From the NCBI RefSeq assembly GCF_044324785.1, contig NZ_CP172127.1: a DNA stretch of 64,000 nucleotides. One strand, given 5' to 3'. The notes under the pieces were generated by a model that ran no database searches, was not told the origin of the DNA, and saw nothing but the letters and a program-made list of their open reading frames with translations. Shown here piece after piece: positions 26,921 through 56,817 of the stretch. The first letter of the stretch is position 1. Each line of letters starts with the position of its first letter. Source of the stretch: Escherichia coli (lineage in GTDB: Bacteria; Pseudomonadota; Gammaproteobacteria; Enterobacterales; Enterobacteriaceae). The translations under genes were made by a program, and so were the position numbers.

Positions 26921-27661
26921 ATGCTGCAAAATATTCGAATTGTGCTGGTGGAGACGTCACACACCGGCAATATGGGTTCTGTTGCCCGTGCCATGAAAAC
27001 AATGGGATTAACCAATCTGTGGCTGGTTAATCCACTGGTGAAACCTGACTCCCAGGCGATTGCCCTGGCAGCAGGGGCCAGCGATGTGATTGGTAATGCT
27101 CATATCGTCGATACGCTCGACGAAGCGTTAGCCGGTTGTAGCCTGGTGGTGGGCACCAGCGCACGCTCCCGCACGCTGCCGTGGCCGATGCTCGACCCGC
27201 GCGAATGTGGTCTGAAAAGCGTCGCTGAAGCGGCAAATACCCCGGTGGCGCTGGTTTTTGGTCGTGAGCGTGTTGGCTTGACCAATGAAGAGTTGCAGAA
27301 ATGCCATTATCATGTCGCGATTGCTGCGAACCCGGAATACAGTTCGCTGAACCTGGCGATGGCGGTTCAGGTTATTGCCTATGAAGTGCGCATGGCCTGG
27401 CTGGCAACTCAGGAAGATGGCGAACAAGTCGAGCATGAAGAGACGCCGTATCCGCTGGTCGATGATCTGGAGCGTTTTTATGGTCATCTGGAACAAACGC
27501 TGCTGGCAACCGGTTTTATTCGTGAAAACCATCCGGGGCAGGTGATGAATAAATTGCGCCGTCTGTTTACCCGTGCGCGCCCGGAAAGCCAGGAATTGAA
27601 TATCCTGCGCGGGATTCTGGCTTCTATAGAGCAGCAGAATAAAGGTAATAAGGCCGAATAA
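26921..27661 (+). CDS. trmJ: tRNA (cytidine/uridine-2'-O)-methyltransferase TrmJ (SPOUT family)
   Basis: 246-aa SpoU-type methyltransferase ([14 protein letters not shown]); divergent from suhB. Confidence 0.9.
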
Positions 27662-27663
27662 CA

Positions 27664-27757
27664 GTGGTTGCCTGATGCGACGCTTAATGCGTCTTATCAG
27701 GCCTACAATGTACAGAACCGTAGGTCGGATAAGGTGTTCACACCGCATCCGACAACA
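27664..27757. repeat. REP/BIME cluster downstream of trmJ
   Basis: Motifs tgcctgatgcgacgcttaatgcgtcttatcaggcctaca and cggataaggtgttcacaccgcatccg. Confidence 0.55.
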
Positions 27758-28419: not shown

Positions 28420-28530
28420 TAAAAAGTATTCAGAATCAGGCCGGAGTGTTTAACACTCCGTAAACACGGTCGTACATCCAGCCGGTAGCCTGGTTCCTTG
28501 CATTGAGTGATGTACGGAGTTTATAGAGCA

Positions 28531-36359: not shown

Positions 36360-36539
36360 GTTGTTTAAAGAAAGTGAAATTACACGTTTAAGTAATATCT
36401 TTTACCAGTTAGTATATTTTAATATTAAGCGGGATTTGTTTATATTTGTCTGAATTCGGACTGATAAGCCAAATGAATTCAAAATCTATCCTTTTTTATC
36501 TACTTGACATCGTTGATGCATAAAGCGAGTATTGAGTAG

Positions 36540-36626
36540 ACGAGATACACTTGCAGTAATACAACCTGCTGGAAAGGCCGCGAATCAGACCAGCAATAAA
36601 AAAACCGCCAAATTCGGCGGTTTTTT
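36540..36626 (+). ncRNA. Sibling copy of the candidate sRNA (about 87 nt) with degenerate antisense region; its terminator is bidirectional and also serves sseA
   Basis: Same promoter architecture (TTGACA 36504-36509, 17-bp spacer, GAGTAT), same internal hairpin (cctgctggaaaggccgcgaa...cagca), terminator aaaaaaaccgccaaattcggcggtttttt. Confidence 0.35.
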
Positions 36627-48177: not shown

Positions 48178-49296
48178 ATGCATAACCAGGCTCCAATTCA
48201 ACGTAGAAAATCAACACGTATTTACGTTGGGAATGTGCCGATTGGCGATGGTGCTCCCATCGCCGTACAGTCCATGACCAATACGCGTACGACAGACGTC
48301 GAAGCAACGGTCAATCAAATCAAGGCGCTGGAACGCGTTGGCGCTGATATCGTCCGTGTCTCCGTACCGACGATGGACGCGGCAGAAGCGTTCAAACTCA
48401 TCAAACAGCAGGTTAACGTGCCGCTGGTGGCTGACATCCACTTCGACTATCGCATTGCGCTGAAAGTAGCGGAATACGGCGTCGATTGTCTGCGTATTAA
48501 CCCTGGCAATATCGGTAATGAAGAGCGTATTCGCATGGTGGTTGACTGTGCGCGCGATAAAAACATTCCGATCCGTATTGGCGTTAACGCCGGATCGCTG
48601 GAAAAAGATCTGCAAGAAAAGTATGGCGAACCGACGCCGCAGGCGTTGCTGGAATCCGCCATGCGTCATGTTGATCATCTCGATCGCCTGAACTTCGATC
48701 AGTTCAAAGTCAGCGTGAAAGCGTCAGACGTCTTCCTCGCTGTTGAGTCTTATCGTTTGCTGGCAAAACAGATCGATCAGCCGCTGCATCTGGGGATCAC
48801 CGAAGCGGGTGGTGCGCGCAGCGGGGCGGTTAAATCCGCCATTGGTTTAGGTCTGCTGCTGTCTGAAGGCATCGGCGACACGCTGCGCGTATCGCTGGCG
48901 GCCGATCCGGTTGAAGAGATCAAAGTCGGTTTCGATATTTTGAAATCGCTGCGTATCCGTTCGCGAGGGATCAACTTCATCGCCTGCCCGACCTGTTCGC
49001 GTCAGGAATTTGATGTTATCGGTACGGTTAACGCGCTGGAGCAACGCCTGGAAGATATCATCACTCCGATGGACGTTTCGATTATCGGCTGCGTGGTGAA
49101 TGGCCCAGGTGAGGCGCTGGTTTCTACACTCGGCGTCACCGGCGGCAACAAGAAAAGCGGCCTCTATGAAGATGGCGTGCGCAAAGACCGTCTGGACAAC
49201 AACGATATGATCGACCAGCTGGAAGCACGCATTCGTGCGAAAGCCAGTCAGCTGGACGAAGCGCGTCGAATTGACGTTCAGCAGGTTGAAAAATAA
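48178..49296 (+). CDS. ispG: 4-hydroxy-3-methylbut-2-enyl diphosphate synthase (MEP pathway)
   Basis: 372 aa, Cys ligands ([15 protein letters not shown]). Confidence 0.95.
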
Positions 49297-49386
49297 TAAC
49301 GTGATGGGAAGCGCCTCGCTTCCCGTGTATGATTGAACCCGCATGGCTCCCGAAACATTGAGGGAAGCGTTGAGGGTTCATTTTTA
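49297..49386 (+). ncRNA. sroE: Probable SroE-like 3'UTR-derived sRNA between ispG and hisS
   Basis: Two stem-loops (gggaagcg cctc cgcttccc; tgaaccc...gggttca) followed by T5 at 49381-49385; from memory, SroE sits in this spacer in K-12. Confidence 0.45.
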
Positions 49387-49406
49387 TATTCAGAAAGAGA
49401 ATAAAC

Positions 49407-50681
49407 GTGGCAAAAAACATTCAAGCCATTCGCGGCATGAACGATTACCTGCCTGGCGAAACGGCCATCTGGCAGCGCATTGAAGGCACACTGAAAAACG
49501 TGCTCGGCAGCTACGGTTACAGTGAAATCCGCTTGCCGATTGTAGAGCAGACCCCGCTATTCAAACGTGCGATTGGTGAAGTCACCGACGTGGTTGAAAA
49601 AGAGATGTACACCTTTGAGGATCGCAATGGCGACAGCCTTACTCTGCGCCCTGAAGGGACGGCGGGCTGTGTACGCGCCGGCATCGAGCATGGTCTTCTG
49701 TACAATCAGGAACAGCGTCTGTGGTATATCGGGCCGATGTTCCGTCACGAGCGTCCGCAGAAAGGGCGTTATCGTCAGTTCCATCAGTTGGGCTGCGAAG
49801 TTTTCGGTCTGCAAGGTCCGGATATCGACGCTGAACTGATTATGCTCACTGCCCGCTGGTGGCGCGCGCTGGGTATTTCCGAGCACGTAACTCTTGAGCT
49901 GAACTCTATCGGTTCGCTGGAAGCACGCGCCAATTACCGCGATGCGCTGGTGGCATTCCTTGAGCAGCATAAAGAAAAGCTGGACGAAGACTGCAAACGC
50001 CGCATGTACACTAACCCGCTGCGCGTGCTGGATTCAAAAAATCCAGAAGTGCAGGCGCTTCTCAACGACGCTCCGGCATTAGGCGATTATCTGGACGAGG
50101 AATCTCGTGAGCATTTTGCCGGTCTGTGCAAACTGCTTGAGAGCGCGGGGATCGCTTACACCGTAAACCAGCGTCTGGTGCGTGGTCTGGATTACTATAA
50201 CCGTACCGTTTTCGAGTGGGTGACTAACAGCCTCGGTTCCCAGGGCACCGTGTGTGCAGGCGGTCGTTATGACGGTCTGGTGGAACAACTGGGTGGTCGT
50301 GCAACACCGGCAGTCGGTTTTGCGATGGGCCTCGAACGTCTTGTATTGTTAGTACAGGCCGTTAATCCGGAATTTAAAGCCGATCCTGTTGTCGATATAT
50401 ACCTGGTGGCTTCAGGTGCTGATACACAATCTGCGGCTATGGCATTAGCTGAGCGTCTGCGTGATGAATTACCGGGCGTGAAACTGATGACCAACCACGG
50501 CGGCGGCAACTTTAAGAAACAGTTTGCCCGTGCTGATAAATGGGGTGCCCGCGTTGCTGTGGTGCTGGGTGAGTCTGAAGTGGCTAACGGCACAGCAGTA
50601 GTGAAGGATTTGCGCTCTGGTGAGCAAACGGCAGTTGCGCAGGATAGCGTAGCCGCGCATTTGCGCACGTTACTGGGTTAA
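49407..50681 (+). CDS. hisS: Histidyl-tRNA synthetase
   Basis: 424 aa with GTG start ([16 protein letters not shown]), class II aaRS motifs. Confidence 0.95.
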
Positions 50682-54098: not shown

Positions 54099-54160
54099 TC
54101 ACTTATCTGGTTTCCCTTTCCACACGGAGAGGGAAACCGAATAACACGCGAGGAGTATTT

Positions 54161-54376
54161 ATGGCACTCAACTGTCCAACCTGCAAAATCCCTCTCGAAC
54201 GCAATGGCGAGACTGCCCACTGTGCAACTTGCGACAAAGACTTTACCGTCCAGGCACTTTGCCCTGAGTGTCATCAGCCGTTACAAGTGTTAAAAGCTTG
54301 TGGTGCTGTGGATTATTTCTGCCAACATGGGCACGGTTTAATATCTAAAAAACGCGTTGAATTTGTTATTGCTTAA
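54161..54376 (+). CDS. yfgJ: Small zinc-ribbon protein YfgJ
   Basis: 71 aa with four CxxC pairs (CPTC, CATC, CPEC, CQHG region). Confidence 0.8.
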   Translation: MALNCPTCKIPLERNGETAHCATCDKDFTVQALCPECHQPLQVLKACGAVDYFCQHGHGLISKKRVEFVIA

Positions 54377-54585
54377 TATCATGTGAATATATTGTTTTAT
54401 CATTTATATTTAATATGTGAATGGTAAAACAATCTGTTATTAGTGGAATAACTAATGTAATTGAGTGAAATCACTAATTTAAATAATTAAGAATATATTT
54501 ATTCTTTATGACATGCCTTTCTGAATAATCAGGGATACAATATTAAAGCTTATTTTTGACTGTATCATTGTCACAGGGAAAGTGC

Positions 54586-56763
54586 ATGCTGCGATGGAAA
54601 CGCTGTATTATTCTAACATTTATCTCTGGTGCTGCTTTCGCGGCACCAGAGATAAATGTTAAGCAAAACGAATCGTTACCTGATTTAGGTAGCCAGGCAG
54701 CACAGCAGGATGAACAAACCAACAAGGGTAAATCGCTGAAAGAGCGCGGAGCCGATTACGTCATCAACTCCGCCACGCAAGGGTTTGAAAACTTGACCCC
54801 TGAGGCGCTGGAATCTCAGGCCAAAAGCTATCTGCAAAGTCAAATCACCTCAACCGCACAATCTTATATTGAAGACACACTCTCTCCCTACGGTAAGGTC
54901 CGTTCGAACCTCTCCATTGGCCAGGGCGGCGATCTGGATGGCAGTTCCATCGATTATTTTGTTCCCTGGTACGATAATCAAACCACTGTTTATTTCAGTC
55001 AATTTTCTGCGCAACGAAAAGAAGATCGTACAATCGGGAATATTGGTCTTGGAGTAAGACATAATTTTGATGAATGGTTATTGGGTGGAAATATATTTTA
55101 TGATTATGATTTTACCCGAGGACATCGCCGTTTAGGTTTAGGCGGCGAAGCGTGGACTGATTATTTAAAATTCTCTGGCAACTATTATCATCCGCTTTCT
55201 GACTGGAAAGACTCTGAAGATTTCGACTTTTATGAAGAACGCCCTGCGCGCGGCTGGGATATTCGTGCCGAAGCCTGGTTACCTTCTTATCCGCAACTGG
55301 GGGGCAAAGTTGTCTTCGAGCAATATTACGGCGATGAAGTCGCCCTTTTTGGTACGGATAATTTGGAGAAAGATCCCTACGCGGTAACGCTTGGACTGAA
55401 TTATCAACCGGTGCCATTACTGACCGTTGGGACGGATTATAAAGCAGGGACCGGAGATAACAGCGATGTCAGCATTAATGCCACTCTTAATTATCAGTTC
55501 GGCGTTCCGCTAAAAGATCAATTGGATAGCGATAAAGTGAAAGCGGCTCACTCGTTGATGGGCAGTCGTCATGATTTTGTTGAGCGTAATAACTTTATTG
55601 TTCTGGAATACAAAGAAAAAGATCCGCTTGATGTCACCCTGTGGTTAAAAGCGGATGCCACCAACGAGCACCCTGAGTGCGTCATTAAGGACACTCCCGA
55701 AGCGGCCGTCGGGCTGGAAAAATGTAAATGGACCATTAACGCGCTTATCAACCACCACTACAAAATTGTCGCTGCGTCATGGCAGGCGAAAAACAATGCT
55801 GCCCGCACGCTGGTTATGCCGGTTATCAAAGAGAATACCCTGACAGAGGGTAACAATAACCACTGGAACCTGGTGCTGCCCGCCTGGCAGTACAGCTCTG
55901 ACAAAGCCGAACAAGAAAAACTCAATACCTGGCGAGTACGTCTGGCACTGGAAGATGAAAAGGGCAACCGACAGAACTCTGGCATGGTGGAAATCACCGT
56001 TCAGCAGGACCGTAAAATTGAGTTGATTGTTAATAACATCGCGAACGTGCCGGAAGAGAACAACCACAGCCATGAAGCCAGCGCCCAGGCAGATGGCGTT
56101 GATGGTGTGGTGATGGATCTCGATGTAACCGACAGCTTTGGCGATAACACCGACCGCAACGGCGATGCGCTGCCGGAAGATAACCTCACGCCGCAGCTTT
56201 ACGACGCGCAGGACAAACGAGTGACGTTAACCAACAAGCCTTGCTCGACCGACAACCCCTGCGTTTTTATCGCTAAACAAGATAAAGAAAAGGGCACTGT
56301 CACCCTCTCCAGTACCTTACCCGGCACCTATCGCTGGAAAGCAAAAGCCGCGCCCTACGACGACAGTAACTATGTGGATGTCACTTTCCTCGGGACAGAA
56401 ATTGGTGGGCTAAATGCATTTATCTATCGTGTGGGGGCAGCTAAACCCAGCAACCTGATAGGTAAAGATAAAGAACCGCTGCCGCTCAACAACACTTATC
56501 GATTTGTTTTGTGGCGTGACAGCAATAAAGACGGTGTCTTCCAGCAGGTCGAAAAACTGACTGACGAAGAGATGGCGCAGTACGACTACAAGTGGGAATT
56601 TACCGGCAAGAGCATCAATGGTGAAGTGGGTGCACAGGCGAACACATCCAATGAGGACATTGTGATTCCGGCCACTAACCGCGAAGCGGCGCAAACCTAT
56701 GGCGCACAAGCGGGAGATGGCTTGCAGGGATACGGTTTACGCGTGCTGTATACCAAAAAATAA
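54586..56763 (+). CDS. sinH: Intimin/invasin-family inverse autotransporter (SinH-like)
   Basis: Signal peptide MLRWKRCIILTFISGAAFA; region ERPARGWDIRAEAWLPSYPQLGGKVVFEQYYGD...GSRHDFVERNNFIVLEYKEK resembles the intimin/invasin beta-barrel as I remember it; C-terminal passenger; lies next to sinI and ratA. Confidence 0.7.
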   Translation: MLRWKRCIILTFISGAAFAAPEINVKQNESLPDLGSQAAQQDEQTNKGKSLKERGADYVINSATQGFENLTPEALESQAKSYLQSQITSTAQSYIEDTLSPYGKVRSNLSIGQGGDLDGSSIDYFVPWYDNQTTVYFSQFSAQRKEDRTIGNIGLGVRHNFDEWLLGGNIFYDYDFTRGHRRLGLGGEAWTDYLKFSGNYYHPLSDWKDSEDFDFYEERPARGWDIRAEAWLPSYPQLGGKVVFEQYYGDEVALFGTDNLEKDPYAVTLGLNYQPVPLLTVGTDYKAGTGDNSDVSINATLNYQFGVPLKDQLDSDKVKAAHSLMGSRHDFVERNNFIVLEYKEKDPLDVTLWLKADATNEHPECVIKDTPEAAVGLEKCKWTINALINHHYKIVAASWQAKNNAARTLVMPVIKENTLTEGNNNHWNLVLPAWQYSSDKAEQEKLNTWRVRLALEDEKGNRQNSGMVEITVQQDRKIELIVNNIANVPEENNHSHEASAQADGVDGVVMDLDVTDSFGDNTDRNGDALPEDNLTPQLYDAQDKRVTLTNKPCSTDNPCVFIAKQDKEKGTVTLSSTLPGTYRWKAKAAPYDDSNYVDVTFLGTEIGGLNAFIYRVGAAKPSNLIGKDKEPLPLNNTYRFVLWRDSNKDGVFQQVEKLTDEEMAQYDYKWEFTGKSINGEVGAQANTSNEDIVIPATNREAAQTYGAQAGDGLQGYGLRVLYTKK

Positions 56764-56817
56764 GATTGGCGTAAGGCCAGTCGGCCAGTCGCTGAAGGTT
56801 CATTAAGGAGAGCATCA

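Follow-up and report, generated by a model that had tools for sequence, protein, structure and literature searches.

The structured spacer between ispG and hisS of Escherichia coli is the small RNA gene sroE and may overlap a terminator and promoter module of hisS

The structured spacer between ispG and hisS in the E. coli DNA analysed here is the catalogued small RNA gene sroE. It does not differ from its K-12 counterpart and is already known, having been listed in Rfam and annotated in K-12 for years. SroE was reportedly discovered through cDNA cloning by Vogel et al. in 2003. It is still without an established function, and the copy in this stretch of 64,000 nt (contig NZ_CP172127.1, hereafter the window) has little weight as a discovery. 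What is new is the comparative evidence for an overlap of SroE with a terminator and promoter module for hisS, of which it may largely be a by-product. On balance, and with moderate confidence, we read SroE as a fragment of the ispG 3'UTR and terminator that overlaps the promoter and leader of hisS and acts mainly in cis, any role in trans being secondary and unproven. Such a cis-acting module would insulate an essential synthetase gene from upstream transcription.

Identity of the ispG-hisS spacer

A search of the whole window against Rfam 15 gave a match to RF00371 (sroE, gathering threshold 51 bits) at 49296-49387 on the plus strand, which covered the complete model (1-92/92) with 116.6 bits and an E-value of 1.8e-28. 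The minus strand scored 16.1 bits against the same model. The locus consists of the following features.

48178..49296, plus strand: ispG coding sequence (ORF list; RefSeq annotation of the identical locus of strain N3 and of K-12)
49296..49387, plus strand: sroE, 92 nt (RF00371 match; K-12 b4761; 100% identity to K-12)
49407..50681, plus strand: hisS coding sequence (ORF list; RefSeq annotation)

Consistent with this assignment, the ncRNA sroE (b4761) at 2640595-2640686 of NC_000913.3 corresponds exactly to window positions 49296-49387, and 151 of 151 columns are identical between window 49270-49420 and K-12 MG1655. The 92-nt sequence is also the same as the SroE sequence given in the supplement of PMC6172242. 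The gene lies between ispG (gcpE) and hisS, on the strand common to both. When the locus was compared with SroE itself (RF00371, b4761), everything testable was alike, including the flanking genes and the strand, and no difference was found; every feature open to testing here is that of a member of the sroE family. The initial annotation, made from the sequence alone, had named this site as that of SroE in K-12, and the positive full-length Rfam search, the b4761 annotation and the complete identity bear it out. The interval it gave, 49297-49386, was in the right place but one base off at each end.

The ispG stop codon is a TAA ending at 49296, with a second TAA right after it, and the hisS GTG stands at 49407, in agreement with the spacer of 110 bp described earlier. 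SroE begins with the final A of the ispG TAA. Together with the listing of SroE among sRNAs processed from longer transcripts (PMC8313858), this position agrees with the label '3'UTR-derived' that the element had been given.

The 801 bases around sroE had a match in 5425 of 5426 complete E. coli genomes, with 100% identity to strain N3, and the 92 nt of sroE were present as a single copy in 5425 of the 5426. RepRanger flags SroE as a REP element (PMC12306157). We ruled out this assignment since sroE is strictly one copy per genome, and a sequence that is single-copy wherever it is present excludes a dispersed repeat.

Fold and conservation of the element

RNA folding of 49296-49387 on the plus strand gave a minimum free energy of -40.1 kcal/mol (z = -4.73), a stability that none of the 200 dinucleotide-shuffled sequences reached. 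The two stem-loops noticed in the bare sequence are both present in this fold, and the T5 run, which had been placed about 20 nt ahead of the hisS GTG, is separated from it by 21 nt. The reverse strand folds about equally well (z -4.91), as is general for hairpin regions, and it is the T-run and the Rfam score that fix the strand. The parts of the element and of the hisS start are listed below.

49305..49325, plus strand: core of hairpin 1, UGGGAAGCG-CCU-CGCUUCCCG, extended to 49300-49331 in the minimum free energy structure (fold and alignment)
49305..49310, plus strand: TGGGAA, possible weak -35 element (inferred), 17 nt upstream of TATGAT (PWM scan)
49326..49333, plus strand: single-stranded linker GTGTATGAT, near-invariant (fold; alignment A2)
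49328-49333, plus strand: TATGAT, -10-like, invariant in 23 Enterobacteriaceae loci
49334..49380, plus strand: hairpin 2, the terminator-like hairpin, with outer stem UGAACCC/GGGUUCA and variable interior (fold)
49367..49378, plus strand: 12-nt stretch complementary to SdsR (SroE 72-83), a lead only (complementarity scan)
49381..49385, plus strand: T5 run directly 3' of hairpin 2 (U-tract, SroE 3' end region; sequence)
49394..49409, plus strand: hisS ribosome-binding region (AAAGAGAAUAAAC) and GTG start (sequence; conservation)

Hairpin 2 alone has a folding energy of -22.3 kcal/mol (z -3.96) and is followed immediately by the T5 run; the annotated 3' end of SroE lies 2 nt past this run. A strict terminator scan of the window found no terminator, and it misses hairpin 2 because the loop exceeds the 3-8 nt limit of the scan. 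A 46-codon ATG open reading frame (49343-49483, plus strand) begins inside SroE and overruns the hisS start out of frame. Other genera do not keep this ATG, and the frame is therefore probably not a gene.

To place the element in a wider context, 80 species-level loci from Enterobacterales, Vibrionaceae and Orbaceae were fetched through HisS. ispG is found directly upstream of hisS in 80 of 80 loci, out to Vibrionaceae, with spacers of 13 to 411 nt, and among these loci the SroE layout is confined to Enterobacteriaceae. Rfam sroE still matched in Enterobacter asburiae, with 55.6 bits, and in Mangrovibacter, with 51.2 bits, and 14 genera from other Enterobacterales families gave no match to the model at E<=0.1.

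Within Enterobacteriaceae, an alignment of 22 sequences (alignment A2) revealed that the stem of hairpin 1 (GGGAAGC-N5-GCTTCCC) is almost invariant and its loop free, with 96.5% of cells paired and one fully compensatory change, from G-C to U-A. The outer stem of hairpin 2 (TGAACCC/GGGTTCA) is 98% paired in the same alignment. Its interior differs completely between genera in both sequence and length and always folds, the long forms reaching about -17 to -26 kcal/mol, and a T-run of T4-T8 follows in all Enterobacteriaceae. In Enterobacter, hairpin 2 is a minimal canonical terminator, and the strict scan detects the E. asburiae copy. A fixed outer stem, an interior that drifts and yet folds, and a T-run are together the signature of a terminator hairpin. 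Four pairs changed on both sides, a number equalled or exceeded in 89 of 500 shuffles; support from covariation is thin because the stems are nearly invariant. The block GCTTCCC-N-TGTATGAT is invariant at 15 of its 16 positions, in genomes whose third codon positions are on average 61% identical in ispG and 83% identical in hisS.

The start of hisS is itself conserved. A GTG is found at the matched position (1501) in 75 of the 80 species, from E. coli to Vibrio, and AGAGAA...AC GTG is kept at the hisS start across Enterobacterales. The T-run about 20 nt before this start is kept even where no hairpin precedes it, as in Photorhabdus, so it may in addition play a part in the leader of hisS.

Some spacers of other species (loci L007 1316-1500, L049 1256-1500, L077 1090-1500 and L055 1261-1500) carry insertions that look mobile. 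An element resembling the ERIC consensus lies inside the hairpin-1 loop of Pseudocitrobacter, and others like it are found in the promoter region just upstream of TATAAT in Photorhabdus caribbeanensis, where the element abuts it, and in Yersinia thracica, about 50 nt upstream. An insert of about 130 nt lies within hairpin 2 of Klebsiella sp. BIGb0407.

Candidate ispG terminator and hisS promoter

In the cis-acting reading that we favour, ispG transcripts would fold into hairpins 1 and 2 and end by intrinsic termination at the U-run, at least partly and probably leakily. The stable two-hairpin SroE fragment would then be freed by a cut in the AU-rich sequence around the stop codon of ispG. The element may thus close and protect the 3' end of the ispG mRNA and limit read-through into hisS. 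The linker DNA, with TATGAT and TGGGAA 17 nt upstream of it, is probably the hisS promoter. Transcription of hisS would start about 7 nt downstream of TATGAT (49341-49343, K-12 2640639-2640641). This point is immediately beyond the 5' arm of hairpin 2, and hisS transcripts would thus not contain the terminator and would not be stopped there. When folded, RNA with its 5' end at 49341 showed no significant structure (z -0.66). We propose that this double duty, in RNA pairing and as a promoter, is the reason why hairpin 1 and the linker are near-invariant while the interior of hairpin 2 drifts.

Published data bear on several of these steps. Two Salmonella TraDIS libraries showed the region to be required (Barquist et al., PMC3632133), which would follow if signals for hisS expression lie in it. 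Term-seq in PMC7815308 placed 3' ends within hisS and ispG, and its tables have none in K-12 2640500-2640699; the T5 run may thus stop few transcripts, or there may be little of the RNA.

That the SroE element doubles as the hisS promoter is something we infer from sequence comparison with the sister families. In Yersiniaceae, Pectobacteriaceae, Hafniaceae, Morganellaceae and Budviciaceae, a promoter of the form TTGAAx-18-TATAAT (12.8 bits by PWM, 10/12 in the strict scan) is located immediately 5' of the CGGGTTCATTTTTT block (also given as GGGTTCATTTTT). It stands 31-40 nt before the GTG in most, and farther away where the leader has extra sequence. In E. coli, the homologue of the CGGGTTCATTTTTT block is the 3' arm of hairpin 2 together with its T-run, and the T-run is present in the sister families too. 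The promoter of Rahnella, Serratia, Pectobacterium, Brenneria and Dickeya is enclosed by a long-range stem, TGAACCCGA...TCGGGTTCA, which is 82.8% paired compared with 23-53% for slid controls and has 3 pairs changed on both sides. With this nested arrangement, RNA reading through from ispG would form the terminator, and RNA from the nested promoter would begin in the 3' arm and escape it.

Enterobacteriaceae are without this inner promoter, and their sole conserved -10-like element is TATGAT, abutting the 5' arm of hairpin 2. The pair TGGGAA-17-TATGAT scores 8.1 bits, a weak match, and recurs in every Enterobacteriaceae locus; in four genera TTGGGA-18-TATGAT reaches 10.5 bits. A pure promoter model leaves unexplained why TATGAT keeps its non-consensus G throughout. 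A possible history, which we put forward tentatively and rate a little short of an even chance, is that the ancestral Enterobacterales had the hisS promoter in the loop of the terminator hairpin, that this promoter shifted in Enterobacteriaceae to the 5' side of the hairpin (TATGAT) and the terminated, processed ispG 3'UTR became visible as 'SroE', and that conservation reflects the module and not a trans regulator. In the ancestral layout, read-through from ispG would have been stopped and hisS transcripts starting in the 3' arm would have escaped.

We also considered a promoter within ispG as the source of SroE. The best promoter-like site there, TTGACG-15-AATAAT (49271-49297, 9.6 bits), was rejected: its 15-nt spacer is disfavoured, and it would start transcription near 49304, about 8 nt downstream of the SroE 5' end, and so cannot produce SroE. 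The conservation of this site is explained by the coding sequence.

We judge it quite improbable that the element holds no hisS promoter at all, with hisS expressed only by read-through from promoters upstream, the ispG:hisS ratio set by hairpin 2 as a constitutively leaky terminator, and SroE a functionless stable by-product. This explanation would accommodate the failure of the TATGAT/TGGGAA pair in the strict promoter scan, the A-U rich stem base of hairpin 2 beside the U-run (UUCA), and the Term-seq tables, in which no strong 3' end is listed at the T5 run. The spacers of 13-60 nt found in Vibrionaceae and some Erwiniaceae, which imply co-transcription of the two genes, point the same way. 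However, the invariance of GCTTCCCGTGTATGAT across genera with synonymous sites merely 61-83% identical would be left unexplained, and the sister families have a dedicated hisS promoter at the same place, so that its complete loss in Enterobacteriaceae would be surprising.

The rplL-rpoB attenuator is a partial intercistronic terminator between co-oriented genes. The ispG-hisS spacer resembles it in having a hairpin and U-run between co-oriented genes, here 21 nt before the start codon, and by this analogy partial read-through is likely. It differs in that a promoter is apparently nested in or next to the hairpin here, and clearly so in the sister families.

A T-box-like cis-regulatory leader of hisS was hypothesised by Barquist et al. 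2013 (PMC3632133), and the structured RNA directly upstream of a synthetase gene does recall T-box leaders and the thrS operator, an analogy drawn in that paper. SroE would then be a leader in which hairpin 2 acts as a conditional terminator sensing tRNA-His, histidine or HisRS. The location of SroE, which is always directly 5' of hisS, is consistent with this idea, as are the terminator 21 nt ahead of the start codon and the requirement for the region in the two Salmonella libraries. In E. coli, moreover, GGGAAGCG occurs twice, and each copy is able to pair with CGCUUCCC, providing a possible alternative structure. Several lines of evidence nevertheless make such a sensor very unlikely. The second GGGAAGCG copy reads ACGGAAGCG in another E. 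coli (locus L003) and E. albertii and GGGTTAGCG in Citrobacter and is absent in Enterobacter, so there is no conserved antiterminator. The Rfam T-box (RF00230) and His-leader models gave no match in 49100-49600 even at E<=1, no leader ORF rich in His codons was found, and the sole internal ATG is not conserved. Neither are the CAU and UGGC motifs, and the linker GUG is AUG in two Enterobacter. Furthermore, no such element is present in several Enterobacterales or in the Vibrio species sampled, whose spacers measure 17-48 nt.

Unlike T-box leaders and the thrS operator, SroE has no T-box model match, no conserved specifier or anticodon-like loop and no conserved alternative pairing. Two specific candidates were rejected on these grounds: an attenuator by alternative pairing of GGGAAGCG at 49306-13 and 49362-69 with CGCTTCCC at 49317-24, whose second copy is not conserved within Escherichia, and a T-box, tRNA-His mimic or His leader peptide, with no Rfam match at E<=1 and no conserved motifs or specifier.

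Possible base pairing in trans and other elements of the window

The targets of SroE had been called poorly defined, and this holds: PMC6172242 describes SroE as uncharacterized, its tables have 'N/A' for mechanism and Hfq binding, and one weak binder, ligB, was found among ten candidates by EMSA. Published data on the SroE transcript include RNA-seq counts and RIL-seq chimeras. SdsR:::SroE chimeras were detected in Hfq RIL-seq and enriched after 24 h of nitrogen starvation (PMC10954441 supplement), and SroE was counted among the Hfq-bound sRNAs of nitrogen-starved E. coli (PMC12539622). The Hfq association and the SdsR chimeras of SroE point to some activity in trans.

We consider it unlikely, on the other hand, that SroE is a trans-acting, Hfq-associated base-pairing sRNA or sponge derived from the ispG 3'UTR that pairs with, for example, SdsR or ligB. 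In favour of such a function, SroE 72-83 is complementary to SdsR 30-41 over 12 nt (shuffle P about 0.03), and the invariant linker GUGUAUGAUU could serve as a seed. The SdsR-complementary stretch, however, is buried in the stem of hairpin 2 and needs 4 G-U pairs, the energy of the whole-molecule SdsR-SroE duplex does not differ from that of shuffles (P 0.34), which leaves the 12-nt match as the one notable signal, and the counts of SdsR:::SroE chimeras are low. The weak binding of ligB stands against 9 of 10 predicted targets that were not bound in vitro (EMSA, PMC6172242). Overexpression of SroE gave no biofilm, motility or fimbriae phenotype, and SroE is expressed constitutively, at levels that do not vary with nutrient conditions. 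Loss of hfq in Klebsiella lowered SroE only 1.75-fold, under the threshold of that study, and its U-tail has just 5 U.

Like the 3'UTR-derived sRNAs CpxQ (from cpxP) and SroC (from gltI), SroE comes from the 3' end of a coding gene, starts at the stop codon, uses the mRNA's own terminator and is listed as processed. In contrast to these two, SroE is without a validated seed or in vivo target, has a short U-tail, shows a Hfq dependence that may be weak, and also overlaps the expression signals of the next gene.

Other parts of the window also differ from K-12 or match known RNA families. Positions 54100-64000 have no K-12 counterpart at the corresponding place, where K-12 has yfgJ and xseA after der. 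In strain N3 this region is annotated as encoding a zinc-ribbon protein, a SinI family protein, a SinH intimin-like inverse autotransporter and an adhesion-domain protein, and it was found at a coverage of at least 80% in 936 of 5426 complete E. coli genomes. On the minus strand, 35881-36495 matches Rfam ryfA (318.6 bits) and IS128 (166.4 bits); in the K-12 annotation, ryfA contains timP, a gene for a small toxic protein, with the sRNA timR close by, and there is an indel relative to K-12 at about 36471-36562. Between iscR and iscS, 28420-28529 on the plus strand matches the Rfam iscRS family, 'iscR stability element', with 131.7 bits. Finally, the 94 nt at 27661-27754 align to two K-12 sites about 180 bp apart in the iscR-trmJ spacer, indicating that K-12 has one more copy of a short repeat than this strain.
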